A stretch of 60,326 bases of DNA, filler included, from Hausera hauseri (lineage: Eukaryota): assembly GCA_046269625.1 (NCBI GenBank). It is 12 parts of 12 records of this genome, joined end to end, with 100 filler letters (N's around TTAATTAATTAA, not from the genome) between each part and the next. Parts side by side here need not be neighbours in the genome. Positions count along the whole stretch, not along the records: positions 34,572 to 41,540 come from JBJURY010047887.1; 11 more parts are not named here. One strand, 5' to 3'. This document shows positions 3,801 to 60,326 of the stretch, in pieces; position 1 is the stretch's first letter, and every line of letters starts with the position of its first letter. The notes beneath the pieces were generated by a model, which saw only the letters and a list, made by a program, of their open reading frames with translations, ran no database searches and had not been told where the DNA came from. Position numbers and translations under genes: made by a program.

Positions 3801-4030
3801 CGTTAATCGAAGTGTTTACCAATTAGCATTTTCCAATATTGACTCACCTCAAATAATTGGTGCATCATTTGCTTTTCTTCGATTGATTGGTTCAAGTACT
3901 GAACCGTTAAAGTGCTATCTTACGATTATTGAATGGATAATTGATTGGCACGTGAACAGTTTTCAACAGAACGATAATTTTGAGTGTTCAGAGAGTCACG
4001 TGACATCCGATTTTCGGTCCTATTTTACGA
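853..4030 (+). CDS. SPG11: Spatacsin (SPG11)-like N-terminal/central portion
   Basis: LKLGYEPIKTLTSICLDTNNTEIRNYL, NLYNFLKRSGFPLSLETMFGWQ, LDYIYYLALGRPYQAF and IIGASFAFLRLIG resemble spatacsin LKNMGFDVKGQLLKICFYTTNKNIRDFL, SRLFGWQ, FAYYLHNGRPSFAF and IGAACVCFLELLG. Confidence 0.85.
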
Positions 4031-21141: not shown

Positions 21142-21639
21142 AGTCGAGCAATCACGATGCAAAATATTCAAGCTGCAATATCCAAGTCAATGGTCGAAAT
21201 CGCTCGTACCCAGGATGAAGAAGTTGGAGATGGAACAACTTCTGTCACAATATTAGCTGGTGAATTGTTGTCTCAAGCGGCACCGTGCTTGGAGAAAAAA
21301 ATCCGTCTAAACCAAAATAATAAATTTATATAGAGAAGCACTCAAAGACGTGTTGGAATTTATGAAACTAATTGCAGTGTGAAAATCAATCCGAATAATC
21401 GCGACGAATTATTGAAAGTTGTCAAAAGCTGTCTTGGTACAAAATTCGTCAACAAATGGTCCAACAGGGCCTGTATAATTGCACTAGATGCAGTTTCAAT
21501 TATCATGACAGATGAAAATGATCGCAAGGAAATTGACATAAAGCGTTATGCCAAAGTAGAAAAGATCCCTGGTGGAAGTATCGAAGATTCCACCGTTCTG
21601 TGTGGTGTAATGTTCAACAGGGACATTGTTCATCCGAAA
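21142..21639 (+). pseudogene. CCT3: T-complex protein 1 subunit gamma fragment
   Basis: [27 protein letters not shown] and [37 protein letters not shown]. Frameshifted, with an internal deletion after NIQAA, and truncated. Confidence 0.92.
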
Positions 21640-22930
21640 AATGTTAATAATGTAACAATCCCAGTGGACACGAGTCAACCGAATCCAAATAAAGTGGAAT
21701 TTGACAATTTATACTTAGACATGAATGGTATTATTCACCCATGTACTTGCCTGGAAAATAAACCTGCTCCAAAAATGAAGACGAAATGTTCTTTGAAAAT
21801 TTTGCCTATATCGATCTTATATCTTCAGTGATACGACCAAGACGATTAATTTACATGGCAGTTGACCGTGTTGCTCCCAGAACAAAAATGAACCAACAGA
21901 GATCCAGACGTTTTAGAGCTTGCAAGGAATCAAGAAAAAAACGATTGACCATTGACAGAATTCGAATGGAATTATTGCAAAAGGGTGCAAGATTACCCGA
22001 TCCAAATGACCCTTCGGAACATTTCGATAGCAACTGCAAGGCGAGATTGGCGATTTCCTTGCAGTATTATGCATATTTGGAATTGAATTCAGATCCAGGA
22101 TGGAAAAATATCCAAGTCATATCGAATGACGCTAACGTTCCTGGTGAAAGAGAACGTAAAATAATGGACTTTATTCGACGTTAGAGAGCGAATCCAACAC
22201 ACGATCCGAATACCAAACACTATTTATGCGATGCAGATGCCGATTTGATCATGTTAGGATCGTCAACGCATGAGTCATATTTCACGATAATTCGAGAAGA
22301 ATTCATACCCAATCAGCCGAAACCATGTGAAATCTGTGGTCAAACCAATCATCTAATGTCCGAGGGTTAAGGATTAGACAGTGTGGAATTTAATATCGGT
22401 ACAAGTTCTTCGTTACCAGAGACTGAGTTTATTTTTATTCATTTGAATATCCTACGAGAATATTTGCAACAAGAACTTGAAATGCCGAATTTACCATTTC
22501 CACACGATTTTGAACGAGCAATTGATGATTGAGTTTTTATATGTTTCTTTGTCGAAAATGACTTTTTGTTGCATTTACCCGGTTTGCAAAAATGAGAAAA
22601 GAAATTGATAGACTGGTGAAACTGTACAAATCAGCTGTGTATAACACGAGAGCATCAGTTTTGAAGGTCCTATAAGAAACTGAGGACAACAACGATACGG
22701 TTATTGATCCACAGTTGGAGCACGATGTTTGTGACCGCATATGGAGAGACAAGGTATCCAGTTTACCAGGCAACACTGTACATAATGCTAATGTTCTTTG
22801 TGAAAATGTCAAAGATATTAAAGTCATATCGTCATACTACAAAGATCCTTAATTTTATGCCGATTACATATTTAAAGCTCGTTTGTTACAAAATGTAATC
22901 GGACCGAATACAATCAAGACCGAACCTGAA
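21640..22930 (+). pseudogene. XRN2: 5'-3' exoribonuclease 2 fragment with internal deletions
   Basis: [83 protein letters not shown] and the C-terminal KDP*FYADYIFKA. Stops and frameshifts present. Confidence 0.93.
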
Positions 22931-23649: not shown

Positions 23650-25473
23650 CCACCGTCTCTTAGGTGGATCTGATCCAAATGCATCTTCTAAAGACCAACA
23701 AGATTGCTGATATCCCAACTATAAGTATACCGTTAAATTCACCTCTACCTCCTGCACCTACTGTAAATCTACCTTGCGTAGAATACTTCGTCGGCAAGCA
23801 ACACTCTAGTCGGGCGTGGCTGGATTTTTATGCGCTTGGTTGAATTAAAATAATATTGTCGATTCGTTCCTTAAAGCAAACAGTTTGCCTATACTCTTGC
23901 CTTTTAACATTAAGTCGCAACTTCCAAATTTATCGGAAATTTTCCAAAGTAGGGACTCATAAAACATTCTTTAACGCTATTTTAAAAATCACCGAACCAT
24001 CCATAGATAACATCATCCATAAATATTTTAACAACAACACAATAGGAACATTGAAACCCTCTGAATTTATACAAACCTCACCAACTCAATTGAGTACCCT
24101 TGGCGTTAATGAATTAAATAACGCCGATTTGCTACGTAGGTATTTTCTACAGTCTTTACCAAGAGACATACGCGCACTATTAACAATAGTAGAGGACAGA
24201 TCGTCACTACAAAAACTAGCACAACTGGCTGACAAAAGCCACGACGTCTTACATGCAAATACAGCCCCATTAATTGCCGCTACGTTTTATGCACCAACAA
24301 CTCAACAAGCTAGCGACATAGCTAATCTGAACTCATAGATAAATTCTTTACGTGTCGAAAACGCCAACATACATCAAGCGATTTCTGCACTCACGTCAAA
24401 AATCGAAGCTTTGACCATTCCTAGACGAAATCGTTTTGATGCGAACCATAGCCGCACCTCATCTCAAAATTCAAGGCATGCAAGGTCATCTACACGGTCA
24501 ATAGTGTGTTACTACCACACCAAATTTAAGGACAACTCCACTAAATGCTGTTTAGGTTGCAGATTGTATGCTCCCCATTTCACACGACCCGACATTGTTT
24601 GTATTTATCATAACAAATTTAATTCTAAAGCACATAATTGCGTTACAGGTTGCACTTTCGTTAACCGATCTAATTCACCACGACCTACTCTTTCTAACAA
24701 CATAAGTCCTGTGCCTCAAAAAAACTCATAAAGCCGCCAGATGTTTCGGCACATACTGGCACAGGCAAACGTCTTCAATCTAATAGCCGTACCTACGCTG
24801 TTTTCACATTAAAAGCCTCCTTAACATCCAAACCCAATTAACCAATCAACTTTCTCATCGACTCGGGGGTACTGTTTCGTTGTTACCACCATCTATCAAA
24901 ACACCATTCATATCACCATCTAACGCTAAATTATACACAGCTAACGGCCAAGTTTTACGCATTTTAGGCACGTCCAAAGTTTCATTCACTTTACCACCAT
25001 TCTGAGACATTTTCAATTGAAAATTCATCGTTGCCGACACACAATCTCCAATACTTGGGTCTGATTTCTTATCCTTCTACAACCTCCTTGTAGATTGCAG
25101 ACAATGTCGGATCATTAAAGCAGTTCAGCAAAGCCGACCCCTACAAATAACCAACCGATCATGAGGCCTATCTTAATTATAAAATCAATATTGAAGAAAC
25201 CATTAACCAATGTGAATAAAAACCTTACTGATAAAACCAGTATAAACAATCCTACTTTTCTGTTAAAGTCCTCTTTAGGCGGCCCGATTTCTACCATTTC
25301 TCAAACTAAGTTCAATCAAACATTTACTACGCCTAGCCAAGAAATGCAACAATATTTAGTCAAGTCTTGTTTTCATACAATAAAAAAGACCTAGCATTTC
25401 GACCGGTTAACACGATGTTTCATCATATCATTACAGAAAATCTTAGGCCCGTTAGGCAGAAACTCCGCCCACT
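23650..25473 (+). mobile_element. Ty3/Gypsy gag-protease-RT start (family A), degenerate
   Basis: FLQSLPRDIRALL...LQKLAQLADK, tandem CYYHTKF...C / CIYHNKF...C knuckles, FLIDSG protease motif, PILGSDFL, and HHIITE...VRQKLRPL. Confidence 0.9.
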
Positions 25474-28239: not shown

Positions 28240-29127
28240 CATTAACACTGTAGTAGATGACTCTACTGCCCTCGAAAAGTTCGTCTTATTGGCTGAAAAA
28301 AGCTTTAACATTCTGCAGTCCAATAACTCGCAGCCTGTAGCCGCAGCAACTACTCACACTGCCAGACAACACTTTATTTGCACAACAACTAAACATGATG
28401 CAGAAACAATTTGATACCCCACAACAAGCAATTTCTGCAATCACATCCCAACTCAGCGACTTATCTGTGCCCCGAGGAAGCGAAAATCGTATTTCTCGCA
28501 ATCGAAGTTTTTCCAGGCACTCTTCTCGTTCTAAATCTAGAGATGGTAGGATGACGTGCTTTTATCACAACAAATTCCGCAAAGATGAAAGGAAATGTGT
28601 TTTAGGCTGTCGATTCTACGATGCACGATATGCCGTAGACAATCGAATCTGCATCTATCACGCAAAGTACCAGTCCAAGGCTAGGTCATGCGTGCCAGGA
28701 TGTAAATATTATAAAAGGAATTCTAGTTCTCCATTTTCTTCGCCTCTGCGTACTCACCATTCCTCCTCTTCCTACCAACAAGTCTCAAAAAACCAGTAAT
28801 GCCACCATATTCCACGGCACATTCTGGTACAGGCAATATTGCTGACACTACTGGCCGTTTCAACACGGCCTCTGCAGTCTTTCTGTTGGAAGCTAATCGG
28901 TTACTTAAAGCACATCACACATAGATTTCCTTATTGATTCAGGAGCTGCATTTTCATTTCTTCCATTGTCTTTCGCTCCTACATCCAACACAGTTTTCTC
29001 TACTTTACTCTTCACTGCCTGTGGTCAACCTTTGAACATTGTATGTACCACAAAGCTGTCTTTCTCATTCTACAACCTACCAGGAAAATTTTCCTGGAAT
29101 TTTCACAGCCAACATCAGATCGCCCAT
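28240..29127 (+). mobile_element. Ty3/Gypsy gag-protease fragment (family A)
   Basis: CFYHNKF...CVLGC / CIYHAKY...CVPGC knuckles and FLIDSGA protease motif; ends at ANIRSPI. Confidence 0.88.
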
Positions 29128-29960: not shown

Positions 29961-31432
29961 GCGGGTGGTGGGATGTTGTCTACAGATGTTTACACTGGAA
30001 TATCTTTGATAATTTTTCGAAGAATTCACTAATAAAATATGGTGTGCGGTCAGTCAATAACTGCTTCGGTGTGCCTAGTACGGCCACAACATAATAAAAG
30101 AATGTTTCGGCTACCGTATGACTAGTCATATTTTTCAAAGGTATTAGAACAACATATCTTGAATAGTAACCAACAAGTGACAAAATGTATTTATATCCTG
30201 ATTCCGATGTTGGAAACGGTCAAGAAATATCCATCGAACAAACTTCCATAGGTTGTCGTGCTTCGAGAAGACTTCCTAAAATGGCTTTGCACGGAATCCT
30301 CTATCCTTTATGGTAGCACACATTTTGAAAAAACGTACCCATCCCTCAATGTTTGTTCATTTGAGGCCAATAACATTTTGTGGCAATGCGTTTCAATGTC
30401 TTGTTTAACGACGGATGACCCGCTAAATGTGAGTCATGTTCTTGCAGCATAACTGCTTTGATTGTTGAATTGGGTACAATAATTAGCTTTCTTTCACCAA
30501 CTTTAAGTTTTAGTATTCCATTTTCAATGTCTAAATGTTCCTTACGTCCGTAAAATTTCTGAATATGACTTGATACTTGATCAACCGTTTGTCCATTTGT
30601 TAAGTTTGACTTGGACAATAAATGGATCTTGATTTTGTAAAGCTTCGATATTTCGAACCTGAATTTGCTTTTGTTTCTGTAACATGTCATTAATAATTTT
30701 CTCATTTAATTGTTTCTTCTGTCTTGTGGTTTATGAACGGCAGCAACTATATTTTCATAAGGTAATCTAGAAATTGCATCTGCGTCTGCATTGTCCTTTC
30801 CTGGTCGATATCGATATTCGATGTCATAATTCAAAAGCTCTAGCTTCCATCTTCGGAGTCGGCTTGATACATGTCTATTGTCTGAGCGCAAAGAAAGTAG
30901 TGCTTTATGATCCGTGAATATTATGACTTTGACCATAGACATAATATTCATAATGTCGTAGTCCGTCACGTATTGATAATAATTCTAATTCCGTGGTAGA
31001 ATATTTCTTTTCGGCGTTATTTAGACTTCGTCCTCCATATGCAATTACATGCTCAGTTGTCTCTTCTGGACACTGTTGAGCCAAAATGTAACTAATAGCT
31101 TTAATGCTGGCGTTGGTTTTCAGAATAAACAAGAGTGAAAAATCCGGATATCGTAATGTGGGTGCTGATGCTAGACGTCTTTTTATTTCATCAAATGCTT
31201 CTTGATTTTCTTCCGTCCATTCCCACTTCTGATCCTTTCGAAACAATTTATACTGGGGTTGGTTAATTTCTACAAAATTCTCAATAAACGTAGGATAAAA
31301 TCCTCCCACTCCTAACCAGGCTCTCATCTCATGTACACTGGTTGATGGAGGATATTCCAAGATTATGGATATTAAATCTGAACTGGTATATATGCCTTGG
31401 TTTGAAACAACAAATCCAAGATATTTGACTTC
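29961..31432 (-). mobile_element. Ty3/Gypsy pol pseudogene (RT thumb, RNase H, integrase), family B-related
   Basis: EVKYLGFVVS, LRYPDFSLLFILKTNAS, IAYGGRSLNNAEKKYSTTELE, TDHKAL, EHDSHLAGHP...YWPQM and PKQLLTDR. Confidence 0.92.
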
Positions 31433-31890
31433 TGTTGGTATTGTATATGGTGCCAACAATATTCTAGTAAGTGGTTCGACGTAACGGATATCATTATTAT
31501 ATTTGATAGGTATTTCTGAATCACAGTGTATCTTTGATTAAGGATAATTCCAATCTTTTACACTTGTATGTGAAAAGTACTTCTAGGACTCTGCTCTGGA
31601 TTCCTTCGCCGAACGAGAGTTATCATTGTCATTTCTGGATTTGACGCACAGATGGCTAATCGGTTTCTCAACGTTTCAAAGTTTGCCTAGCAGAAATTCT
31701 GAATTGTTTCGGAATACACTTCTATTGTTTTGTGGGTCAAATAAAATAAGACATTTCTATTTGCGATGTAATCGGCAATGTTCACCAATTGAGCCCTGTC
31801 GGTTAATGAATTGTCTGTTTGTACAATTTCTTTTTCCGATTTTAAGAGTTTGTATTGGGCAAAAGCCCTGTATAGGCCGCACAATACAAG
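31433..31890 (-). pseudogene. Chuvirus-like glycoprotein, central fragment
   Basis: VNIADYIANRNVLFY...SNPEM...GEGIQSRVLEVLFTYKCKRLEL...HCDSEIPIKYNNDIRYVEPLTRILL aligns by eye with the glycoprotein at 34727-35100. Confidence 0.8.
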
Positions 31891-32779
31891 TTCTAAAATC
31901 CAGTCGTAAAACGACTGGTGAAAACTTGGGGAAACAACAACTCCAGATTAGGTTTGTTGTAATAAATTTAGGTTGATGTAGGTGATCTAGACGTCGTGTG
32001 TAGGTGGAGTTGGACTCCACACCATATAAGAAGTTGGCAAAGATGTCCTCGACGCTGTGGTATTTGGTTGCGGTTGTTTTGTCTGTTTCAAGACAGCATT
32101 TCAATAAATCTTCATTTCGGTTGTCTTTGTCATCATCACGGCTGCTGCTGCCGCTGCTTGTTGGTTTCGTTCTTGAATCGCGTGAGTCATCAGCAGAGAA
32201 GCTGTATGAATATGAAAAGAATATTAAAGAAATTTATCAGGAAATTATCGGCGTTCATGTCTGCATCCATTCGGTTGAATTCGCATTTGATATCTGATAG
32301 TGACTATGGGAATTATCGTTGACAATAAAACAGGTTTGTCCACCATGTGAAAATGATGAAGTGTTAATGACGGTATGACCGACGGAAATCGTGTGCTGAT
32401 GAGCTGTCGTCAGTTGTTATGGGACCTTGTGGTGTAGTCGAGTCGATGGACAAGTTCCATATTAAATTGATGAATGACGCGTTGGTCGTAATTCCTGCAA
32501 TCTTCATCAGTGTCGGTTGATCGGCGAATAAATCGGACAATTATGGCAGATCGCCCATTCGATTTGTGGTTGGTAATGATATCGCAGTCGCAGCTGCGAT
32601 TGCTGATGACGACGACAGCAATGCGAATTTGTTGATGTTTGTCGCTTTCCCTTTTTTTAAAAGTTAAACTGTTCTTTTGGACTGTAGATTTAAATAACCG
32701 GGTTTAAATCCACAGATTTTTGCTAATGATAATGTTCTTAGGCGAATTCATGATTTTTTAGTATTTGAATTTGTTTTGA

Positions 32780-33520
32780 TATTTGATTTTGTAAAGAAAA
32801 GCTTTACAACGATATAAAATAATTTTCATAGTTTGTACTAAATACTTGTTCACATTTTGTAATCAAGTCTTGTTGTATAAACTTAACACCTTGGATATTT
32901 TTAGATATTATAATTTTGGTTTTTACTTCATCAATTACTTCACTATTTGTATTTTCAACATTTGTTTCATAATGTCGTGCATGACGTTTTCCCGTCGTTG
33001 CGTTAGATTCGCCTTTCCGGATTTGTACTAATGCAATCATAACTTTTAGGGGTTGTGCAGTATCGTAGACGTTCTTGTGTGACAATATCCTATTCTAATT
33101 TACAGAAGGGAACATCCATTATCGTATTCGTGTTTGTTTCAAAGATGAAGGTATTTTCTTTGATTTCAACATCATACTGATCGTGTACAACCGATTTTGA
33201 AATAACTCCTTTACCTGTATCGAAATTGCCTCCTTTGCCATTTCCTTTTCATCTTTATGCAACAATTCATTTTTCTTGTTGAGTTACTTGATCTCTGCAG
33301 TTAATAAGATGTCACCTCACTTCAATTGTTGGGTTTCACCTGCGTCTCGACAATATGTGAGATTGACCGACACGTATCTAGGCATTGTTGTTGGTTTGAT
33401 AGCGGAAACATGATGTAGATGACCGCAGTAGGTAATAGTACGGGATACTCGTAGTGAACACTAATCCTTTTATATGATGTGTGGATTTGTCATAATAAAT
33501 ATACGAATTTTGTGTCGTAA
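32780..33520 (-). pseudogene. Chuvirus-like glycoprotein, N-terminal ectodomain fragment
   Basis: SRTITYCGHLHHVSAI (cf. chuviral RTIYYCGMHSHVSAV), GGNFDTGKGVISKSVVHDQYDVEI...FCKLE, and GVKFIQQDLITKCEQVFSTNYE (cf. GLKFIKKEMMTRCDKVMFATNYE near 34614). Confidence 0.8.
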
Positions 33521-34319
33521 TTCCTAATTTCTTCGGAAGTGCGTCCGGGCGAGATTGTAAATTCATTAGAGTAATAACTTCCTTCATAAACTTTGTCACA
33601 ATTGTATGTTAGTATGGTTCCTGATTTCTTAAAATTTGAGAATAATGCCAATATGAATAGGATGAGTTGTAAGAAGAATCCATTAGTTTTAGTTCCGACA
33701 CTTCAGCATTTCTTCCTGAATGTTTCATCATTTTATCCATAACAATGGGAACAGCTTCTTGTGAGGAATTCTCTGTAATTTCGAAAATAGCCTTTTCTAA
33801 TGTTGTTTGTTCTGCTTCTGGATGATTTTCGTTTTCATTTCGTAAGAATAAGACATTCCATTTGCCGTATTGTGATATGATCGATTTGCTAGCCTGGATT
33901 ATTTTTCCAGTTGTAATTTTAAGTCAGTTTCGTTGTTTCGGATATAAGTAGAATTATTACTTTCTCAAGGTTTCTGCGCGATGGCGCCTCTAAAATGAGT
34001 TGGGTAATGTCTTCAAAAGTAAAATTTTCCCATTCCAAATTTTTAGTGGTTTTTCACAAATTTGAATTGCTCTTTAACTTGTTTCTTCCATTTTGGAGAA
34101 TGGAGGATTATCGGATCTTTGCTTGTATCGACATAACATAGCTCGCTAGCTAATTTTGCATTTTTGCATTCCTTGTACAGTTTTGGCGTTTCGAATTCAA
34201 TTAGTTGATCCGCAGTTTTTAGCATTTGTTATTGTTTTATTTCGTTTACATCGCTCATTTAGGTAAAGTTTTCTTTACGATTGGTTATACCACTTCTTGG
34301 CCATCAGTGTCAGTGTTTG

Positions 34320-34471
34320 GCTTGTTCAGTGTTTGGTAGTCTAACCTATAAGTCTTGATTATCGTATTTGATAAATGGTTTGTTTAATGCCGTACAGTTT
34401 CGAATTCCTGTTGGTATTGTATGTGGTGCCAAAAATATTCTGGTTATTGGCTGAACATAACGAATTTCATC
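34320..34471 (-). pseudogene. Additional chuvirus-like glycoprotein fragment
   Basis: DEIRYVQPITRIFLAPHTIPTGIRNCTALNKPFI...VRLPN; a paralog of 31433-31500 that continues further into the glycoprotein. Confidence 0.7.
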
Positions 34472-34571: not shown

Positions 34572-35744
34572 ACGGAACACCCGACACCGACTATATTTAT
34601 TTCCGACCCGCACGGACTAAAATTTATTAAGAAAGAGATGATGACACGCTGTGATAAAGTAATGTTCGCCACAAACTACGAAGCGTTCTTTGTGCCGAAA
34701 CAGAAATAAACGCGAGAACTTACAAATTGAAAACGCAAGACGTTCGGATTGAGGACTACCTGAAAAATAGGGACGATTATTTCTACTGTAAAGGACAAGT
34801 CGGAATAACAGAATTATATCATAAAATGATAATGAATGATAATAAGAACTATAATGGCTCTTATATACGCAAATCCAGAATTAGCTTCTCCAATAATTTC
34901 CATGAGAGAAGGAATTTTCGGTCGAGTTACGGGCGAAGTATTACTAACCTATGAATGTGAAAAAAGAGAACTACCTATCAGCGTAGAAGAAAAACGTTGT
35001 ATCCAAGAACTTCCTGTTATTTACCAGTATACTCCAAGATTAGCTACACCATTGACGAGAGTGTTGTTGGATAGCGCGACACAACTGATCATTCTTAAAG
35101 ATTGTAAATCAGGCTTAGGAGAACCAATGTTTCGACGTAGCGAAACAGACTGGGTTAGTTTACCTAATGGAGATATCACTGCTGCTCCTAACAAGCTAAC
35201 AGGGACGAATCTTGCGAAGGGTATTACAGACGATAAATTTCAAGACATCTCGTCAAAAGGTATATACAGACCAAAAGAAATTGAAGCCTTCAGACAATTC
35301 CCCGCCTTTCCACGACAACGAACACATGAGCTAAATCGAGCTATGGCGTCTGTAGTAGACGATACACGATATCAAGCTAAATGGGAATCATTACTTGGCG
35401 TAAACCACTATCAAAGAGTGACAACAGAAATACTCTATAAAATTTGGGGAAGATTTTTGATTTTTGGACAAGCCGCATCAGGATTTTTAGCGATATACTT
35501 TCTGATACAAATGATTAAGTCGGTTATCCAAGCCGTGATAAACGGATATGAAATATTTACACTAACCGGATTTTTATGTAAAATTCTGACTGCAATCATA
35601 ACGCCTTTTGGAAAATTCTTAAAAGCATATGAGGAAAGTAGATGGAAATCGGACGTAGAACGTCATGTCGGTTACTATAATCGTAAACGAAGAGGGAGAC
35701 CGTTATTCCTACAAAAGCGGAAGTATACAAAACCTATTATATGA
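34572..35744 (+). CDS. Chuvirus (Jingchuvirales)-like envelope glycoprotein, C-terminal half
   Basis: GRVTGEVLLTYEC...CIQELPV...ATPLTRVL, SSKGIY...IEAFRQFPAFPRQR and IWGRFLIFGQAASGFLAIYFLIQMIKSVIQAVINGYEI mirror chuviral G (VAGEVIHIVKC...CYxQLPV...TPRTHIL, TSGIY...LRDHIMFPAE, WxKFLxFGxxSAG...IxHGYAL). Confidence 0.85.
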
Positions 35745-38700
35745 AGAAATAATTCAGATGATGACGAGCCTAAGGGAGGAGAAGCGCTTGTAGGAATAAA
35801 TAGACATAAGATGTACTCCGTCATGAAAGCGCCATTGCCCATGTTACCTCCTACCGCTCCATTCTACGAAGATTGCGACAAACGATCCATGAGCTCATAT
35901 CAAACGGAAATCTATAAAAGAACAATTAATGTCGAAGATCCTTATGAAGGAACGAAACGTTACGGAATTCTACGGAAAATGTGCTACCGACAATCCGCAG
36001 ATGATCCCAAAGTGTTTTATTCACCGAGAGAATCTAAAAATATCGAAACTAGATCTACGGTTTGGGACAAACCCAGATTTAAAACCTTCCAACATACTGA
36101 ACTACATACCAACAATCGAGAGCCGCTAATCAGTACTCACGAAATGGAAGAACTGCATGTAAAAAACAATGAATTATATTCCGACGAAGAATTAAGACAG
36201 TTATCGGGAAACATAGTATCCGCCCCAGAAGTACGAATAAACGGACACAAAATATCAGTAACTAAATGTATGAAAATAGCATCGAATTGTTTCGGAACAG
36301 TGATCGAAGGAAGACCGTTCGCCAAAATCACTATTGAGGATTGGGAAGTTTATGCGTCAAGTTTATACATCAAAAATAATTCAATACCTCAAACGCTAAG
36401 AGGACAGTTATATCCGCCGTCTACGAAAGATCCGGGTAGTATAGGAGCTTTTGGCCAAATGTCAAAACCAATGTTTAAATGGAACCCAGAAGTTCATTTA
36501 GTTTGGCAAACATTTCGACACAAATTTGCGATCATGGAACAATTAACTGACGACGTTGTTCTAGGATGCAATTTATTGAAAAGGTTACCAAATATAGCAG
36601 TCGACCTACAAACAGGAAAATTAATAGAAATCAGGCTCAATAAAGGTGTGAAAAACTCTAATAATAGAAAATTTGGGGAAGTGTGGATACCAGTAGACGA
36701 GAATATTCCACCAAGAACGGAAATAATAATTTATGCACAAATTCAGCAAGATGACGATCATCCAGTATACTTCGAACCAAAGGAAACGTTAAATCCAAAT
36801 ATAACGCTCAGTAATGTACTTACGAGAGTACATTCTGGTCGTGTGCCGATCAGAATAGCGAATAATGCACCAACTCCTATCAAATTCCATGCTTATACTA
36901 CTCTAGGAGATACGTATAGAGTATCGTCAATAACCATTGAAGAAAAGCCTTATAAGTATGCCGAATTTCCGCCTCATGTTGAAACTAAGTTCTGCCCGGA
37001 ATTCTACTATCGATTTTATGAATTATTATGCCACTATAAATCAATTATTGCTAAGGATAAAAATGATAGCGGTAGAGCAAAAGCGTTAAAACTGACTGTT
37101 CCGCTCAACAAAAAGCATGATTCAAATGAAGAAATAGATTTGGAGGATCAGAAGATTCCGAAACAATACCCTCCACCACATTCGCTAAGACTTGAGTAAA
37201 CAAAGGAAGTCGAACGAATGCTTAAGGCCGATATAATTATGCTCAGTTACAGATCCTGGTACTCGCCTATCCTTATGGATAAAAAGAAAGGCACCATGAA
37301 GCACCGATTTTGTATCGATTATAGAGCTCTAAATAATCTTATGATGAAAGATTCTTTTTTAATGCCATTAGTGAAAGAGGCCTTAGACAGACTCTCAGGA
37401 GCAAAATAATTTACCACTCTGGAACTACAATCCGAATATTGGCAAGTGGAAATAGAGGACGAAGACCGCTATAAAACAGCGTTTAAAACACACGATGGCG
37501 TTTATGAATTTAACGTCATGCCGTTCGGTATTACTATCGGATTAGCCATATTTACAAGAATGATGAACAAAATGTTAATGGGACTGGATCATGCCTTTGC
37601 GTATTTAGATGACGTGATAATAGCATCGAGAACAGAAGAAGAACACTTAAAGGATATTGAACACGCACACTGATGAGATTGGAACAAGCCGGATTGAAGT
37701 TAAATCCGAAGAAATGCAAATGGGCTCAAAATGCAATATCCTACCTGGGTCATATAGTTAGAGAAGAAGGATCGAAACCAGATAAATCGTTATTGAACAA
37801 AATATCAGATTGCATGGAACCACAAAATCAGAATGAGTTAAGACACTGGTTAGGTCTCTGCGGATATTATGCAACATATGTGCCGGATAATTCAAAGATT
37901 AATTCACCTGTATATCGTCTGCTTAAAAAAGGGATTAAATGGAAATGGACAGACGTGGAACAGAAAGCTTTTGATGAGAGGAAGAAGATATTAACAAGCG
38001 AAACCGTTTTGCGATATCCAGATTTTAGCTTACCCTTTATAATCAAGACAGACGCCAGTAAAGAAGGCATTGGTTATGAATTAGCACAGAAAAGAATATG
38101 AAGAATTAGAACACCCGATTGCTTATGGAGGACGTTCCTTAAAAAGGCCGAGAAAAATTATTCTGTTACCGAATTAAAAACTCTAGCCGTAAAAGAAGCA
38201 CTACGCCATTTCAACGTTTACGTATACGGACAGAAAATTATAATTGTTACCAATCACAATGCTGTTACGACCTTAAGGGCCGAGCAAATAATCCGACATG
38301 CAGGCTTAATAAATGGATCGAAGAAATCTCCAGATATAACATTGAATTTCAGTATATGCCAGAGAACAAACATGTAGACGCAGACGCCCTATCGAGATTA
38401 AAGATTAAAACAAGCGCAATCATTACAATGAAGAAAAGTCAACTTGAGGAAGTAATAGACCGCCAAAGAGCGCTAACAATGGATAAGGCCATTAAAATTT
38501 CAACTGAACAAAGAAAGGATAAGGTCGTCCAGCAGATTATAGAATTCGCCAAGAAGGATGTCGTACCAAGAGGACGAGAGTTAAAGAAGCATTTAAACAG
38601 ACTCGGACATAAATATTGCGTCTTGAATAACAAGAGTAAAGAAGATATTTTATATTACGAGCGAAAAGGAAGGAAATTGATAGATATCCCAAAGAGTTTA

Positions 38701-39780
38701 CGAACCGAAGTGCTGATGTCAGAACATGATTCATACTTAGCCGAACACATGTCCTGGAAGACATTAGAAAGAATAATAAACAAGTACTTTTGGCATAGTA
38801 TCTATATTGATGTGAAAAATTGGGTAAATGCCTGTGAAGTGTGTGCAACTAAGCAGAAAAAGACGAAAAAATACATGGCCGAGTTAAAACGAATTGATGT
38901 ATCCGATAGGCCCATTTAGGCCATGTCGATGGATATCGTAGGATCTCTTCCTACGACTCATAGGAACAATAAGTATATGTTAACGTGCGTCGATCGCCTA
39001 ACTCATTTTGTCAAAGTGGTAGCATTGGTTGATCAGAAGGCGGAAACTTTAGCAGAAGCAGTAGTAAGAAGAATCATTTGTCGATACGGACCACCTGACC
39101 AAATATTAACGGATAGAGGTAGAAACCTTACCAGTGAACTTTTCGAGAAGATTACCAAGATATTTGAAATCGAACGATTAACCACTACCGCATATCATCC
39201 TGAGTGTAACGGGATGGTAGAAGGCATGAATGCTACCATCATACGTATATTATCAACAGTTGTGGCAAAGGGCCAAAAGGATTGGGATGGATTTTTAGAA
39301 GGAACTCAATTTGCGATTAATACTACACCACATTTAGTAACAGGATTTACACCATTTTTCATGATGTATAGTTGTGAAGCTGTGTTACCTGCAGACTTAG
39401 TAATGACGCCATACACAGTCAGTCTCGAAGATTTGGAGCAGAACTTTGCAGAAGTATTGCAGACACGATTACAAAAATGTTGGGAAATTGCCAAGGAGCT
39501 ATTTTAAAAATATCAAGAACAGTTTAAAAAGCAATATGATAAGAAAGCGAAACCGCACGATCTAGAACAAGGAAACTGGGTTTATGTACATTATTCGGTA
39601 GCCAAAAAAGGCACCTCACTAAAATTGACTTGTACGGGTAGAAAACCGTATGAAGTCACCAGAGTCACGCCAACCACAGTGTATATTAGCAAGAATGGAA
39701 AAGAAGAAGTTGTGTCAATACAGAGAGTTGTCAAGACAGAAATGCGACCCAGCAAACGTTATAATTTACGCCAACGTTGG
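35745..39780 (+). pseudogene. Linker plus Pol (protease, RT, RNase H, integrase) of family B copy 1
   Basis: VVLGCNLL (protease end), RFCIDYRALN, KTAF...MPFG, AYLDDVII, IKTDAS, HVDADALSR, H..H...CEVC, MDIVGSLP, ILTDRG and HPECNGMVE. Confidence 0.95.
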
Positions 39781-41211
39781 GTAAAAACATCCTCAATAGT
39801 TACTAGACCAATATCATATGTTCAGATAGTTTTAGCATTATCACTAATTGCCTCCTACATCCCAAGAATACAAGCGCAATGGTGGCATGATGAATCCACA
39901 TTAGGAGATATATACGGAATTCGGAAGAGTGGATCGAAATCGGAAGCAGATAAAACGGAGAAGAAACCAACAGCCGAACAAATTCAAAGACAAGAAGATA
40001 CTAAATTGTTACAATCGATGATAATTCACTATTATTCGCCAAACGCAGTATGATCGGATTTAAGGTTTGGAGGCCACACCTTGATTTTGGAAAGTTTCAA
40101 ATTGTCTTATTTGACCTAACCACAAAAGCAATGAAAAATTGTAATTTCGAACCTGGAGAGAATATCCAGTGCTGCGACAGATTTTGGACGCACGTATAAC
40201 CTCACCTATCGTCTCTACTTGCCAGACTCATCCGAAGTTTATCTTGAAACAAAGCCACATTCACAATTAATTATCCCTGCATGGAACAGACATCATGGAG
40301 TAAAACTTAATGAAATATTACGATCTACTGACCCAGATATAAGAATATTAAACGAAAATATCCAGATAATCTCTGTGAATAAGGACAAACAATGCATTCA
40401 AGTAGACGCTAGAACAGGATTAACTTTTAGTCAGGAAATTAGTATTACGTTTGAAGCAACAGATGGACTGACCCCAAAAATAGAATATTGTTCTATTCGA
40501 GCAGGCGTACAAAGTCCATGAAGTAAAATACCCGTAAACCAAGAATTCAAGATAAGATTTGACTTATATGAAGTACGGCCTAATAAATCAAGTGTACAAC
40601 TTCGAACTTACTATCCAGAAAATAAAATTTGGAAAATTTTAGTAGAGACAACCACCAGAAGACCGGCAACTCAAGTTAATACCGTTACGACAACCGTTAC
40701 GTCGGCCAGTGTGCCGAAAAGAGAATTAGGAAGCATTCCTATTAGATATTCGGTATATCGGTCTAAGATTGTGTTCTTTGTGGAAGGAAAACAAAATTAC
40801 AATATACATAAATTGTCGGACAACGTATAATAATCAAGCTGTGACATTATTTAAAAATACTTATCAGAGTGCAATTTATTAAAACCACAAACCAAGTATG
40901 TAGTACAAGTATACGCAGAGAATAAGCAAAATCAGACTGTTACATTGCAAACTTTAGATGAGATTCGCGCAGAATCCCATGCATACGAGGATATAGATGG
41001 ACAGATCACAACTCCGGTCACCACACAAGCCCCAATGGGATTAACTACGCTACCAATCGTATCCATCTCCATATTGTCAACATTTGTTCTCATATTAATC
41101 GCGATTTTTCGGCTAGTTACCAAAAACTGCTATTCTAAGCGTTCTGAAAACTCAGAGTGGGAATTAAGGAAACTGGAAACCTCTGTTGATCCGTATGATA
41201 AAATAACCTGA
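39781..41211 (+). pseudogene. Type-I membrane protein fused in frame after integrase (signal peptide, FN3-like domain, Thr-rich stalk, TM, short tail)
   Basis: After RYNLR: YVQIVLALSLIASYIPRIQA (signal-like), TTTRRPATQVNTVTTTVTS, LKPQTKYVVQVYAEN (FN3-like), IVSISILSTFVLILIAIFRLV (TM) and tail YDKI. ORFs 38923, 39625, 40219 and 40945 share one frame. Confidence 0.7.
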
Positions 41212-41540
41212 CAACTACAGAGCGGGTTATTCTATCATCTAATAAAGAATTGATTTAATTTTAAAACTATCCTTTGTCGTAAGATTAATCCTTACTGTTT
41301 ATTTTTCAGACTGATGAGTAAAGAAAGAAATACGGAAGCAAACACCGGACGACCTAGGATCGACGTATCACAATCTACCCAAGAGTCAGAACAATGTAGT
41401 ATCGATAAATCGCCGAAACGCCGATTTAGTATCGACGAATTCTTGCAGAATTATGCTACCATCTTCCTCCCAAATTCTAAATCGATATATAGAGAAATAC
41501 ATAACGTACTACATGAGAAAACCTTCGTGAAGTATGATCG

Positions 41541-46173: not shown

Positions 46174-49100
46174 TACAAGAACTTCCAGTAATATATCAGG
46201 ACGTACTGAGGTTAGTAACACCAATTACCAGAGTGTTGTTGACAAATGCCACTTAACCGACAATTTTTAGATACTGTAAAACCAGCTTAGGAGAGCCAAT
46301 GTTCAGACGTAGCGAAACCGACTGGGTAAGTCTACCTAACGGTGGTATTATCGCACCACCTACCAAACTGACAGGAACAAACTTAATAAAATGAATAACC
46401 GATGACAAATTTTAGGATACAGCTGCAAAAGATATTTACCGACCAAAAGAAGTAGAGGCGTTTATACAATTTCGCGCTTCTCCCCGCCAACGTACTCATG
46501 AATTAAACAGAGCGATGCATACAATATTAGAGGACTCGCGCTATCAGGCGAAATGGGAGTCACTACTTGGAGTTGGCTATTACAAGAAGGTAACTACAGA
46601 AATATTATACAAAATATGGGGAAGATTTCTGATATTCGGACAAGCCGCGTCAGTATTTCTAGCAATATACTTCTTAATTTAACTAGTAAAAGCTATAATT
46701 CAAGCAATCATAAATGGATACGAGATATTTACCTTAACAGGATTTTCGTGCAAAATTTTAACGGCTATTATTACACCTTTCGGTAAATTCTTAAAGGCTT
46801 GTGAAGAAAGTAAATGGAAAACAGATGTAGAGCGACTTGTGGGCTACCACAATCGAAAACGTAAAACACACGTATTTGATTATAGACAGAAATTCATAGT
46901 CAGTAAGACACAAAAAAATAATTCGGATGATGACGAGCATAAGAGAGGAGACATCATCACCAGGCCGAGTAAACACAAAAAGTACTCTGTTATGAAATTA
47001 CCATTACCAGTAATGCCACCAATGGCACCTATAGATGAAGATTGCGAGAAACAATCTATGAGCTCGTGTCAGACAGACGTCTATCGCAAGCCATTTAATA
47101 TAGAGGATCCCTACGAAGGAACAAAACGCTATGTGATATTTAGCAAGATCCACGAAACAGAGAGGACGTCTGCCCCACACCATCGATCGGCAATAGACAA
47201 CCACGGTATAATTTACTCACATAGAATACCTAAGCCAAACGAAACGCAATCGATATTTACTCGAAGCTGCAAAGCATGAAATCTCCGAAAAACACATGTT
47301 CAGCCTCCAGTCAGAAACCCAAGAGTAGAAAACGCGAATGGAACGAATAACGAACTATATCCAATTGGAGAGTTAAGACAGTTTGTCGATCAGCCAGTTG
47401 GAACCACTGAAGTTACCATCAACGGCTATAAAGTGTCTACGATACGACAACCCAAGGTAGAGCCAAGCTATTACGGTACAGTAATCGAATGAAGGCACTT
47501 CGCAAAAATTCAATTGGGGGATTGGGAGGTTTATGCACTAATAGATACATGATCTGAAATATCGCTGATAAAATATGATTCAATACCACAATTCTTACGG
47601 AAACAATTATATTCACCTCCCACGACAGACCCAGGAAGCATTGGAGCTTTCGGACAGTCGTCGAAAAGCAAATTCCGTTGGAAACCAGAAATTCACATAA
47701 TGGGACAATCTTTTCGTCATGAATTCTCGGTAATGGAGCAACTAACGGATGACGTAGTGTTACTGTGTGACTTATTGAGACAACTGCCCAATATAGCAAT
47801 CGATTTCAATGCAATCAAGTTGATAGAACTTGGCCCAATAAACGGAGTTAAAACCACTAAAGATAGGAAATTTGGAGAAGTGTAGATTCCAGTGGATGAA
47901 ACCCTATCACCCAAAACAGAAATCCTAATATATGCTCAGATACGTCAGGATGACGATCAGCCAATATATTTTGAACCAAAGGAATCGCTCGATTCAAACC
48001 TCGTACTCAGCAATGTTTTGACAAGAGTATCAACGGGTCGTGTACCAATCAGGATAGTCAATAACGCACCAATTCCGATCAATCTGTACGCTAATACCAC
48101 TTTGGAACACATGTGGAGAGTATCATCAATCACTATTGAGTAGAAACCATATAACGGTGCCGAATTTCCACCCCACGTCGAGACTAAGTTTTCACCAGAA
48201 TCATATTGTCAATTTTACGAATTACTTTGTCATTATAGTTCAATTATTGCGAGAGATAAAGAAGACATTGGCCGAGCCAAAACCTTAAGGCTTACGATTC
48301 CGCTTAAGAAAAATCCCGGATGTAACGACGAAATAGACTTAGAAGATCAAAAGATTCCAAAATAGTACCCTCCTCCACACTCGTTAAGACCAGAGATAAC
48401 CAAAGAGGTTGAACGAATGTTAAAGGCAGACATAATTAGACCATGCTACAAATCTTGGTATTCACCGATACTCATGGTCAAGAAAATAGGTACTATTAAG
48501 CACCGATTTTGTATCGACTATTGAGCACTAAATACACTTATTATGAAGGACTCTTTTCCTTTATCATCAGTAAAGGAAGCTCTGGACAGACTTTGGGAAG
48601 CTAAATGGTTTACCACTCTTGGCTTGCAATCAGGATATTGGCAAGTGGAGATAGAAGAAGAAGATTGTTACAAAACGGCATTTAAGAGACACGACGGCAT
48701 ATATGAATTTAATGTTATGCCTTTCGGAATCACCAATGGACCAGCTATTATCACCCGCATGATGAATAAGATGCTAATGGGACTGGCACATGCATTCGCC
48801 TATTAAGATGACGTCATGATTGCCTCGAAAACGAAAGACGAACATTTAAAAGACATTGAAGGTACACTCATGAGGCTGGAACATGCTGGACTAAAACTGA
48901 ATCCCAAGAAGTGCAAATTGGCTTAAAATGCGGTATCGTACCTTGGACATATAGTTGGAGAAGGAAAATCGAAGCCAGACAAGTCATTACTAAATAAGAT
49001 ATCGGACTGCATGGAACCTCAGAACCAAAAGAAATTAAGACATTGGTTAGGTTTGTGTGGGTATTATGCTACTTACATACCGGACAACGCGAAGATACAC

Positions 49101-51200
49101 GCACCTTTGTACCGCTTATTAAAAAAGGAAATCAAATGGAAGTGGACCGATATCGAACCAAAGGTTTTCGATGAAATAAAGTACATTTTAACTAATGAAC
49201 CGGTTTTAAGATATCCTGACTTCAACCTGCCGTTCATAATCAAAACGGATGCCAGCATGGAAGGCATCGGATATGAACTGGCTCAGAATCGAGAAGACGA
49301 GGAGTTAGAACACCCGATCGCATATGAAAGGCGTTCTCTAAAGAAGGCTGAAAAGAACTATTCCGTAACAAAGCTGGAAACATTGGCAGTGAAAGAAGCA
49401 CTGCGACACTTTAACGTGTATGTCTATGGACAAAAGACTGTAATCGTTACCGATCATAAGGCAGTCACGATCTTAAAAGGTAAAGCGAATAATCCAACGT
49501 GTAGACTAAATATATGGATAGAAAAATTTTCACGTTACAATATTGAATTTCAATACAAACCCGGAAGTAAACATGTCGATGCCGACGCATTATCGAGACT
49601 TAAAACCAAAACAAGCGCAGTTACTGTAATGAGTAAAGCACACCTCGAAGATTTAGTAGAAAGACAACGGAATTCGTGCTGGATAAAGCATTAAAGATTG
49701 CTGTCGAACAGAGAAAAGACAGGGTTATACAACAGATTATCGAGTTCGTTGATACCAACGTAACACCCAAGGGTCATATACGGAAACACCTACGACGATA
49801 TGGTCACAAATACTGCGTCGCTGGAGATTGGAACCATGAAAAAGTGTTATACTACGAACGAAAAGGACGAAAATTGGTAGTCATACCAAAAGGAGTGCGC
49901 ACAGAAGTGCTTTTAGCCGAACATGATTCATACTTAGCTAGACACATGTCGTGGAAAAAGACATTAGAAAGGATATTAAATAAATATTATCGGCCGAGTA
50001 TTTACATTGATGTGAGAAATAAGCGCAACCAAACAAAGGAAAGTGAAAAACATATCGACGTGCCCGATAGACCAATGCAAGCAATGTCTATGGATATTGT
50101 AGGGCCATTACCTACAACTCATAAGAAAAAAAATATAGTTTGACCTGTGTAGATCGACTGACTCATTTCATCGAGCTTGTAGAGTTACTAGACCAAAAAG
50201 CCGAAACCTTGGCAGAAGCCGTAGTTCGCAAAATCATTTGCAGATACAAGCCACCCGAACAAATCTCGACAGACAGAGGAAGAAACTTCACGAGCGAATT
50301 GTTCGACAAAATTACCAAAATTTTTGAGATTGTACGGCTAACTACTACGGCTTATCATCCCCAATGTAGTGGAATGGTTGAGCCAATGAACGCAACAGTT
50401 ATACGAATCTTATCGACAGTAGTCGCACAAGACCAGAAAGATTGGGATGAGTTCTTAGAAGGTACACAGTTTGCTATTAATACTACGCCACATCCTGCAA
50501 CAGTACTTACTCCGTTTTTTATGATGCATGGCAGAGAAGCTGTATTACCTACAGATATAGGACTGATTCCATACACAACAAGAACGGAAGATTTGGAACA
50601 AAATTTTGTCGAAGTATTACAATCAAGATTGCACAAGTGTGGGGAGATAGCCAAGGAAGTATCTAAAGAATACCAGGAACAATTCAAGAAGCAATACCAT
50701 AAGAAAGCTAAACCTCACGATTTAGAACCCGCAAATTGGGTTTATGTACACTATCCAGTAGCAAAGAAAGGAATATCTCTTAATTTTACCAGGACAGGCA
50801 CAGGACCTTATGAAGTTACCAAGATTACGCCGACCACAGTCTATATAAATAAAAATGGCAAGGAAGAGGTCATATCAATTCAGAGATTAGTTAAAACGGA
50901 AATAAGACCGGATAAATGCTATAATTTGCGTTCGAATAAAGTTAATAAGGAAAGGAAAACATCGTCAATCGTAACCAAACCGTTACCGTATGTCCAAATA
51001 ATTCTTGCCCTATCGTTAATCGCTTCATGTGTACCCAAGGTGACATCAATAACTAGAGCCGAAAAACTACGATACGCGATGAAACGCAGGGATATCCAGA
51101 ACATGCAATCACTTAGAGTACATGATATGGATTGGAGCAAACCATGTGCATGGTTTGAAGCAAGCGAACCTATTCAGAGCCACGTAAAATTTCAAATAAT
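46174..51200 (+). mobile_element. Envelope-bearing Ty3/Gypsy retroelement (family B), copy 2
   Basis: Glycoprotein C-terminus (QELPVIYQ...IWGRFLIFGQAAS, 46174-46830) continues in frame via NNSDDDE into the protease ALIDT*SEISLI (about 47535-47570), then RT, RH, IN, RSNK and the signal-like YVQIILALSLIASCVPKVTS. Confidence 0.92.
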
Positions 51201-57399: not shown

Positions 57400-59690
57400 G
57401 CAAGACGACAATGCAGCCCTACATCAAGCCATATAGGCCATCTCTAGCAAAATTGACGCTTTGGCTCTGCCGCATCGTGGTCGTTTTATAGCGGATCGAA
57501 GCAGACAGTCGTCCGCAAACTCTAAGCACGTCCAGTCACCTTCGCGACAAATGGTGTGTTATTATCACACCAAATTCAATAGAAATGCCAAAAAATGCTG
57601 TATAGGCTGCAAGTTCTATACGCAACGTTTCCAGTCAGACGATGCGGTCTGCATATATCACAATAAGTTTAAAGACAATGCAGAACGCTGCTTATGTGGA
57701 TGTAAATTTAACACTCCGAAAACTCCAATATCTTCATCTATTCAATAAAACGTCCAAAGCCGCCAGAAACCACGGCGAATTCTGGCAAATGTCATTTTTT
57801 CCGTTTTGACTGCCGTACTTCTACCAATAGCGTTTTCTTATTGGATGCTGCACTCACATCTTTTCTTCATCACTAAATTCATGATCGATTCAGGTGCAGA
57901 TGTTTCATTACTACCTTCATCTTTCACATCACCAAAAATGCTCTCTACGTTTACTGAACTTTTCACCGCAAATGGGGAAACATTAGGTATTTTTGGTGCC
58001 GTAGAAATGTCTTTCACCCTGCCACATTTTTCTGATGTCTTTCAATGGAAGTTCATTGTTGCAGATATTAAAACACCAATTTTAGGGTCTGATTTTTTAT
58101 CGCACTACAACTTACTAGTTGATTGCAGGCAACACCGTGTGATTATAAGTACAATCAATTATACAAGAGCACAAAATTTTGCACCACTTGTCGCGCAGTT
58201 GGCTGTAGCGCCGAAATCTATATTAAAGAAATCTGTTATCAAATCAGATAAATTGACTGTTGATAACTCCGATTGTGACGCCTCCATTCATGCAGTAACA
58301 ACACAAACAATTGCCAACACCGACACAACCTCTCACCTCACCTCACCATTAATGCAACTAGATACAGCTCTTCGTGACTACATTACAATTTCGTGTCCTA
58401 GAACATTGAAGAAAGACCCAAATTTCAAGCCTGCTTCTACGAAATACCATCACATTGTCACTGAACACCAAAGACCAATTAAACAGAAGGTTAGGCCACT
58501 TTCTCCACGCAGACGCAAAGCTGTGAAATTGGAGTTCAATGAATTAGGAAAGGTAGGAATTAGAAGAAGATCAAAGTCACCTTTAGCCTCACCTCTACAC
58601 GTAGTGCCCAAGAAGGGCGGTACCTTCAGGCCCTGTGGTGATTATCGCCAATTAAACACCATTACGATAGTGGACGCATATCCATTACCGCTCATCAGCG
58701 ATATTTTACACAGACTCAATTGCAACACCATATTTTCATCCATCGATCTTCATAAAGCCTACCATCAGATTCCTGTCTTACCTGCTAACATACCAAAAAC
58801 AGCTGTGACAACACCATTCGGCCTTTTTGAGTATGTTTTCATGCCGTTTGGTCTACGTAGTGCCTATCAAACATTTCAAAGGCACATAGATACAATTCTC
58901 GCTGGTCTAAACTTTGCATTTCCTTACATAGATGACATTCTCATAGCTTCGACATCTCCTAAGCAACATTCTGAGCACTTACGCATCGTTTTTCAATTCC
59001 TCCACCAAAATAATTTAGAAGTAAATTTCGCCAAGTGTTCCTTTTCCAACACAAGATCCATTTTCTTGGTCATGTTATCATTAAATTTGGCCACTCTCCT
59101 TAGCAAGACCGCATAACTCAGCTTACGAACATCCATTTGCCACTAACAACAACTGAAATGCGCTGTTTTCTTGGCACACTCCACTTTGTTCACAAATATG
59201 TGCCACATTACTCTGAGTTAACCGCACCTTTTGCCTCTTTATCATCTGAAAAGAAGAAACAACTAATTCACTGGATTCCCAAACGTGTCAACCAGTTTGA
59301 CCATTTACATAAAAGTTTAAAAACTGAAAATTCTAGCGTACCCCAAGCCTGACACAGAGTTAATATTAATCACAGATGCCTCTACCACAGCAGTCGGCGC
59401 AATACTGCATAAAATTTCTAATGTCGTCAACGAGCCTCTGGAATTTTATTCTCGGAAACTTACACCACCAGAGAGCTATTAGCTATAGTATTAGCTATAA
59501 AACACTTCTCGCATTTGTTAATTACCAGGTCTTTCACAATCCAAACTGACTACAAACCTCTCATTTACATCATGGATATGAAAACTCCTTCACCTCGACA
59601 AGAACGTCACATATCGTACTTGCCGACATTCAATTTTAAAATGGTACATATTTCAGACACTGACAATTTGGTCGCCGATTTTTTGTCGAA
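57400..59690 (+). mobile_element. Ty3/Gypsy gag-PR-RT-RH (family A), partly intact
   Basis: Double CHCC knuckle, FMIDSGADVS, ASPLHVVPKKGGTFRPCGDYRQLN, KTAVTTPFGLFEY, PYIDDILIAS, TDAS and RQERHISYL. Confidence 0.95.
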
Positions 59691-60326
59691 ATCGAATAAA
59701 GAGTTGGATTCTTATCTTCAACAGCTGGTGTTTCATCAGTTGGTTGATTTATTATCTCAGTCTGTCTGTGAATTGATTTCTTAATTAAGTATAATTCTTT
59801 TGTTACAGGTTTCAGAAAATGTTGTATCGCTTCTTCTGTTGAGGATGGAAAGGTGTATAAAGATATAGATATTTATCTTCAATGGATGGTTGATGTTCAA
59901 CCGTTTGTTGATCTTTTATCCTGTCAATTGATTTATTAATTAAGTGTAGTTCTTTTGTTACAGGTTTCTGAAAATATCGTATCTCTTCTTTTGTTAAAAT
60001 GTTTTGATTTTTAACTTGCATTTCTTGCTTATTATATTCATCATAATTTTTAATCACTTTTATTAATAATTTTCCTTGAATTTAAATAATTTTCCATCTT
60101 AAAAGGCAATAAAGTAAATTGCTCAATTTTTGGGCAAGGATTGAGAACTACTCCCTGTCCTTCGCTAACCTCACATTTACATCCGCCTTTAAATGTTTTT
60201 AATACTTTGTAAAATGTTTCTTTTCACCATTAGATAAAGAAACATCTTGTTTTGCCCTTTGGTCCCTCCCATGAGAAAAATTTAATGAAAAATTAATATT
60301 CAAATTTTCATCTGATTTTTCGGTGT

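Follow-up and report, generated by a model that had tools for sequence, protein, structure and literature searches.

A candidate triple-FN3 membrane protein encoded behind the integrase of a gB-bearing Ty3/gypsy element in Hausera hauseri

A decayed Ty3/gypsy copy in the Hausera hauseri assembly GCA_046269625.1 carries a gB-type envelope region (env) upstream of pol and, behind the integrase and in its frame, an open reading frame (ORF) for which a signal peptide, three FN3 domains and a transmembrane (TM) helix are predicted. Judged by its sequence, this ORF is a genuine gene of the element, and we consider it nearly an even call that its product, a single-pass triple-FN3 membrane protein, is a separate attachment protein beside a gB-type fusogen. 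The window, i.e. the whole stretch of 60,326 nucleotides that was analysed, consists of 12 short contigs with N-padded linkers; the features discussed are collected in Table 1.

Layout of the element copies

The contig at 34572–41540 starts within env, ends 330 nt past the post-integrase ORF and carries, on the + strand, the C-terminal half of env, RT, RNase H, H2C2 and the integrase core, all of them broken by stops or frameshifts. The Ty3/gypsy pol order of RT, RNase H, H2C2 and rve is present in the sequence, the protease being placed by position only: the region between env and RT gave no notable Pfam match, and the D[TS]G protease motif was absent at the expected place both in this copy (36290–36450) and in a sister copy in the window (47470–47600). 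We take the YxDD motif of RT and a GPY/F-type integrase tail (KPY at 39643, GPY at 50803 in the sister) to be marks of Ty3/gypsy. Hydrophobic stretches of the env part begin at 35484 and 35553 (hydropathy 1.93 and 1.76, respectively), and gB domain I–II is represented by its last 45 codons only, where likeness to the C1a rows was judged by eye; the first 45 codons of the env piece share 12 of 27 residues with the gB row of Smed_errantivirus_1 (Schmidtea), again by eye, a likeness that points to a flatworm as the probable host. A word-indexed protein search with the env part found no match among 1,076 long-protein candidates. A single stop at 35742 lies at the env/pol junction, and the matching junction of the sister has none. 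Compared with the sister, in which PF24664 was found at E 0.0057 on a short piece of env, pN/pS was 0.15 for env and 0.16–0.17 for the integrase. On these features, the element at 34572–41540 is a degraded member of a multicopy Ty3/gypsy family in which a gB-type env precedes pol.

That the element is multicopy is seen from the sister and a third relative within the window and from thousands of diverged contigs in public sequencing runs. The third, more distant relative (29961–34471, - strand) has env pieces adjoining the end of RT, RNase H and integrase, with the protease and the start of RT apparently missing, and ends before the post-integrase region; a 63-nt repeat in it (31432–31494 and 34408–34470) suggests rearrangement.

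Downstream of the stop of the post-integrase ORF, an AATAAA is found at 41241, followed by a further open frame that had no Pfam match, is likewise covered by diverged contigs and is probably part of the repeat family; the stretch 41241–41540 may possibly encode one more accessory product by way of splicing. Neither an LTR nor a target-site duplication was detected within the contig, which ends before reaching the 3' LTR.

Table 1. Coordinates of the element features in the window
Feature	Position	Strand	Details
gB/chuvirus-like (class III) env, C-terminal part	34572–35741	+	PF24664 E 1.5e-31, profile 344–601 of 653; upstream of pol
Linker and protease-like region	35745–37196	+	same frame as env; "protease" by position only
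RT and RNase H	37200–38400	+	YLDD at 37602; RVT_1 E 4.7e-17; RT_RNaseH_2 E 4.1e-14; stops and frameshifts
Integrase	38686–39774	+	Integrase_H2C2 E 2.4e-14; rve E 1e-11; ends in RYNLR (39757–39771)
Internal signal-peptide-like segment	39784–39876	+	integrase frame; hydropathy peak 1.71 at 39796 (modest)
Charged spacer, predicted helical	39910–40005	+	helix 45–74 in P0007 model; copy-variable length, shorter in sister
FN3-like domain 1, frameshifted here	40009–40272	+	strands 76–161 of P0007 model; frame test
FN3-like domain 2	40360–40635	+	one true stop at 40519; 35 of 92 residues identical to P0007
Thr/Ser-rich linker, domains 2–3	40639–40734	+	pLDDT <50 in P0007 model
FN3-like domain 3, frameshifted here	40744–40950	+	model and frame test; contains LKPQTKYVVQVYAEN (40879–40923)
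Short juxtamembrane stalk	40960–41049	+	S/T-rich stretch about 41008–41049
Transmembrane helix	41050–41124	+	hydropathy 2.66 (2.26 and 2.95 in homologs); helix in both models
Cytoplasmic tail, Y-x-x-I-T then stop	41125–41211	+	YxxI at 41194–41205
Downstream open frame (75 codons, runs to contig end)	41314–41540	+	after pyrimidine-rich AG near 41309
Sister element	46174–51200	+	env tail, pol, integrase; 71% nt identity over 3613
Sister, signal segment	50956–51048	+	
Sister, start of the same ectodomain	51049–51198	+	

The post-integrase reading frame

The ORF (39781–41208) lies in the integrase frame and starts six nt past the RYNLR motif. It contains 7 stops in 476 codons, compared with 36 and 33 stops in the two remaining + frames and 21–32 on the - strand, and none of 2000 shuffles had as few as seven (minimum 16). 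Six of the seven stops cluster in 40051–40134 and 40828–40854, and in each of these clusters a non-integrase frame fits the homologs (p 0.0003 each; homologs described below), pointing to internal frameshifts, so that this copy is in frame only net. With that qualification, the stop counts and shuffles agree with the sequence-only reading, which had placed the ORF in frame after integrase and RYNLR.

The signal-like segment, also part of that reading, is a candidate signal peptide: its hydrophobic peak is modest (hydropathy 1.71–1.82), small residues stand at -1 and -3 by reading, as in the -3/-1 rule of signal-peptide cleavage, and it is conserved in the sister (21 of 31 residues identical) and in the homolog P0007 (19 of 25). 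The proposed TM helix and YxxI tail end were both found, and the single C-terminal TM helix with a short tail is as expected of a type I membrane glycoprotein; three N-glycan sequons are present in the ORF. All three full C-termini end in Y-x-x-I-T; a terminal YxxI-type motif arose in 6,626 of 100,000 shuffles and is weak alone, so it is its conservation that carries weight. The mucin stalk was misplaced, since the main Thr-rich stretch (40648–40722; 11 of 25 residues S/T here, 12 of 25 in P0007 and 15 of 25 in P0008) precedes the last FN3 unit and only a short S/T-rich stretch adjoins the membrane.

Whether the ORF belongs to the element can be judged from the sister, which has 358 stop-free codons running from the integrase through the signal segment to the contig end; the stretch from the integrase tail to the signal is stop-free in either copy. 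Over the signal segment, the two copies differ at 10, 4 and 20 sites by codon position, with a synonymous difference of 0.82 and a pN/pS of 0.23 (p 1.5e-8; one pair, signal segment only). The 50 residues past the sister's signal gave no significant match to the 34572–41540 copy directly (p 0.27–0.69) and matched P0007 with a score of 99 against 27±4 (0 of 5000 shuffles), which indicates that both copies carry the same ectodomain. In base composition the ORF matches pol (A 0.373 against 0.372–0.379). Between integrase tail and signal no in-frame Met was present in the sister, and no AG occurred at a shared position past RYNLR in the two copies. The claim that two different membrane proteins flank Pol is upheld by the PF24664 match upstream and the sister-conserved signal-FN3-TM order downstream.

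The region is also widely represented in public sequencing data: the ORF region is covered in 30 of 30 bins by 25,295 contigs of one run and 1,860 of another, of which 20,104 and 1,581, respectively, are less than 95% alike, although contig depth is not copy number and the window may itself derive from run X1. Cover is thinnest at 39931–40163. One diverged contig (X2 record 14, 39606–39839) spans the integrase tail and signal; among the contigs listed for the two runs none links the integrase to the TM helix.

These data bear on two explanations in which the ORF would have no role in the element. According to the first, a host FN3 membrane gene would have been retrocopied and picked up behind the integrase, to be carried along as a functionless passenger. 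The broken state of the 34572–41540 copy would suit this, but pol is similarly broken, the signal segment appears under coding selection at a synonymous difference of 0.82, the sister has the same ectodomain start, and homologs at 34–44% retain the cysteines, the TM helix and the tail ending; we regard a passenger as very improbable. According to the second, which we find scarcely credible, the stretch would be host DNA or LTR filler beyond the coding part of the element. The contig offers no LTR or target-site duplication that would set a boundary; however, the in-frame junction is common to two copies that are 71% alike, the cover is multicopy and diverged, no LTR start was detected between integrase and ORF, and no purine tract of at least 11 occurs either there or inside the ORF. 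Both explanations fit the selection data poorly.

Fold and relatives of the predicted protein

A HMMER search over 1.84 billion representatives returned two matches, both singletons: P0007 (479 aa, intact, 34% identity over its whole length, E 5.7e-62) and P0008 (189 aa, 44%, E 5.4e-27). Cysteines, the TM helix and the Y-x-x-I-T end are common to the homologs and this copy, and P0007 also has the signal segment. P0007 starts with its own Met residues and shows no N-terminal hydropathy peak above 1.5, and an R-x-[KR]-R furin site is absent in P0007 and P0008. Within P0007, units 1 and 2 are alike (score 70 against 25±5), units 2 and 3 less clearly so (p 0.02), and units 1 and 3 showed no repeat likeness. 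The word-indexed protein search with the ORF found no match among 6,792 near-length and 445 shorter candidates, and context searches retrieved nothing in viral contigs, metagenomes or prokaryote genomes. A PDB sequence search gave no match for the ORF, two of its three pieces or P0007. A search for host paralogs had been proposed, and no host parent was found in the protein and PDB searches.

Several candidate matches were discarded. The kelch-design PDB match of the third piece was the sum of six 4-bit repeats, and a glycine-receptor PDB match was a match of the TM helix at E 0.66. Pox_G7 scored E 0.00028 and 20 bits in the ORF, under the cut-off, and was absent in both homologs. As for cadherins, which have a conserved motif triad, an after-the-fact motif pattern matched this copy and neither of the two homologs, and there was no Pfam cadherin match.

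The profile scores for FN3 were low: in domain 3 of the ORF, Pfam fn3 reached E 0.043 (14.5 bits against a gathering score of 25) and NDNF E 0.073, both below cut-off, and fn3 scored 13 bits in P0008 and had no match in P0007. The structure prediction that had been suggested was run on the intact homolog P0007 and gave three FN3-type domains, i.e. three beta-sandwiches at pLDDT about 60–75, the last of which is set off from the other two by a disordered linker rich in Thr (model from 4 sequences, mean pLDDT 54, pTM 0.27). The seven-strand beta-sandwich of FN3 topology is seen in this model with modest confidence. A single-sequence fold of the ORF itself (pLDDT 36) was useless. Foldseek searches of the PDB with the P0007 model gave as best match contactin FN1–3 (E 4.1e-10), with TM-scores of only 0.12–0.18, which are low because the packing of the domains is not fixed in the model; all 41 PDB matches listed are FN3-containing proteins, either by title or presumably so. 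VIA-align matched domain 3 with Z 9.2 (rmsd 2.5, 76 residues), a modest value near the range that the tool calls common, and domain 1 to a monobody with Z 8.6 (rmsd 3.0, 86 residues), likewise modest; structural matches of domain 2 occurred only inside multi-domain rows. In a viral library, the fold matches were arrays of FN3 and Ig-like domains from phages and giant viruses, and no fusogen was named among the 50 viral-library rows listed (several of which are unnamed) or the PDB matches listed. Atlas leads were FN3 single-pass proteins scoring 0.83–0.87, all below 0.9.

The post-integrase protein is thus predicted, on the basis of a model of modest confidence, to have three FN3 domains besides the signal peptide and TM helix. 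Of the earlier proposal of an FN3-like strand, the fold stands on the model of the intact homolog; the number does not, there being three FN3-like units and not one. The P0007 model shares its tandem FN3 fold with fragments of contactin, Tie2, gp130, CD45 and LAR, whereas comparison with cellular FN3 single-pass proteins gave 7–17% identity and no sequence-level match, and a cytoplasmic signalling domain is lacking here.

Possible roles and comparison with known elements

On the way in which retroelement envelopes of the gB type attach to target cells, a survey of 1,512 errantiviruses is silent in the parts drawn on here (PMC13524379). A conserved FN3 protein at the surface, made within one polyprotein with gB, would be a concrete attachment candidate. 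Herpesviruses divide the labour between gD and gB, and if the FN3 protein is the attachment partner of the gB-type env, a retroelement would show a herpes-like split of attachment and fusion. Under this attachment reading, the element would make one long polyprotein that begins with env, continues with the Pol enzymes (protease, RT, RNase H and integrase) and closes with the signal, three FN3 domains and TM helix. This chain would enter the ER and, at the env anchor, return to the cytosol, where Pol would lie; the basic stretch past the integrase and the internal signal would re-route it into the lumen, and signal peptidase would release a type I FN3 protein, both glycoproteins thus coming from one RNA. 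YxxI motifs are sorting signals, and the tail may sort the FN3 protein via endosomes to the site of particle budding. The task of the FN3 array, held out by the linker rich in Thr, would be to bind a molecule on the host surface; fusion would fall to gB. Since no close cellular parent was found, the array was probably captured from a host receptor long ago.

A polyprotein is the simplest reading of the shared env/pol frame and the lack of an in-frame Met in the sister; a separate ORF or a spliced message for the FN3 protein is possible because P0007 has Met residues of its own. In Atlas virus, envelope proteins can follow the integrase in one polyprotein, with attachment and fusion assigned to two proteins (PMC9094657), and in Tor elements env is described as being expressed either under internal promoters or through splicing of the RNA (PMC4402516). 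Many gB-type errantiviruses have been reported with no mention of a second protein in the parts of the survey used here (PMC13524379), so gB may not need one.

Two other roles would leave the FN3 protein functional. The first, unlikely but a serious contender, is that of a host-modulating accessory that acts on the producing cell and is not in the particle, either a captured FN3 receptor-like decoy or a protein that drives endocytosis of a host receptor through YxxI, for immune evasion or superinfection interference. Its fold neighbours include the cytokine receptors and receptor phosphatases IFNAR2, gp130, CD45 and LAR, the short tail has no signalling domain and keeps a sorting-like motif, an endocytosis signal of the YxxI type fits a decoy as well, and planarian Burro polyproteins are reported to contain host-modulating domains (PMC6431247). 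However, the searches found no specific parent receptor, the FN3 neighbours are tied, with plain adhesion proteins among them, and the location in a structural polyprotein suits a particle component. The second, which we hold to be distinctly unlikely, is cell-to-cell spread, in which an adhesion molecule would hold the producing cell to a stem or germ cell for gB-mediated transfer. In line with this, adhesion arrays (contactins, fibronectin, Dscam and NCAM) head the fold matches, and accessory TM proteins are reported to drive soma-to-germline transfer of MDG1 elements (PMC11952523); the sORF2 protein concerned is, however, described there as a short fusogen-like protein of env-less elements, unlike the FN3 protein.

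Retaining attachment as the preferred role, we tentatively propose, somewhat on the doubtful side, that a flatworm errantivirus lineage has two-part entry, in which a gB-type fusogen acquired from an RNA virus is encoded ahead of pol and a receptor binder of three FN3 domains, taken from a host, behind the integrase, both being cut out of one polyprotein. The slot behind the integrase, vacated when env stands before pol, could take a cell-type receptor module, and the POL ORFs of flatworm GAG-ENV-POL elements are predicted to hide an unannotated C-terminal membrane protein.

The env-before-pol arrangement is already known, both from errantiviruses and from Burro. GAG-ENV-POL layouts with an HSV/gB-type env were described for errantiviruses of Platyhelminthes, Nematoda and Bryozoa (Chary and Hayashi, PMC13524379), which share with the present element the Ty3/gypsy pol, the upstream gB/chuvirus-like env and the multicopy state; unlike here, no post-integrase ORF or membrane protein is described in the parts of that report considered, whose authors did not look for other ORF arrangements. 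Its table gives no LTR or primer site for Smed_errantivirus_1–6, which would fit extra sequence behind pol (PMC13524379). Burro/GYPSM1, a giant planarian gypsy element, has one polyprotein in which env is placed in frame after gag and ahead of pol and which includes captured host-like domains, but these extras are BIR, BCL2, MATH, ankyrin and SUMO-like domains rather than an FN3 membrane protein, and Burro is far larger (PMC6431247). Atlas virus and the belpaoviruses have an in-frame envelope behind the integrase, with GN (attachment in phleboviruses) and GC (fusion); Atlas virus, however, is BEL/Pao, with one phlebovirus-like cassette behind Pol and a class II fusogen (PMC9094657), whereas here two proteins of unrelated origins flank Pol. 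Extra ORFs behind pol are known as well (PMC5408684): rotifer LTR ORF3 (PMC5408684) and MDG1 sORF2 (PMC11952523) are accessory or captured ORFs downstream of pol, some of them with TM segments, but they replace env or sit in env-less elements, and none is called FN3 in the parts of these reports used here. An FN3-type membrane protein behind the integrase of a gB-bearing element was not found in the literature searched, which lay outside RepBase, subscription journals, Grohme 2018, Sacco 2022 and the GitHub data of PMC13524379.

Other contigs of the window hold unconnected features. An intron-free frame of 1,355 codons (946–5010) has a BRO1 domain (E 5.8e-25) at its end and a long remainder, and looks like a host-gene chimera. 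At 21334–22184, one frame runs through both a Cpn60_TCP1 chaperonin piece (E 7e-15) and an N-terminal piece of XRN (E 1.1e-8), XRN continues in another frame (E 2.1e-35) and a retroelement gag lies nearby; this is likely a chimera of host mRNAs. The contig at 41641–46073 has a G+C content of 0.47, compared with 0.34–0.39, contains a DDE_Tnp_4 transposase piece and may come from another organism. A 77-nt near-perfect palindrome (94%) at a contig end (25461–25537) is possibly an assembly artefact. Several related small gypsy elements, whose gag ends are rich in cysteine and histidine and which have no connection with the FN3 gene, are present at 10989–11806, 23799–25104, 28341–28799 and 57437–59784.
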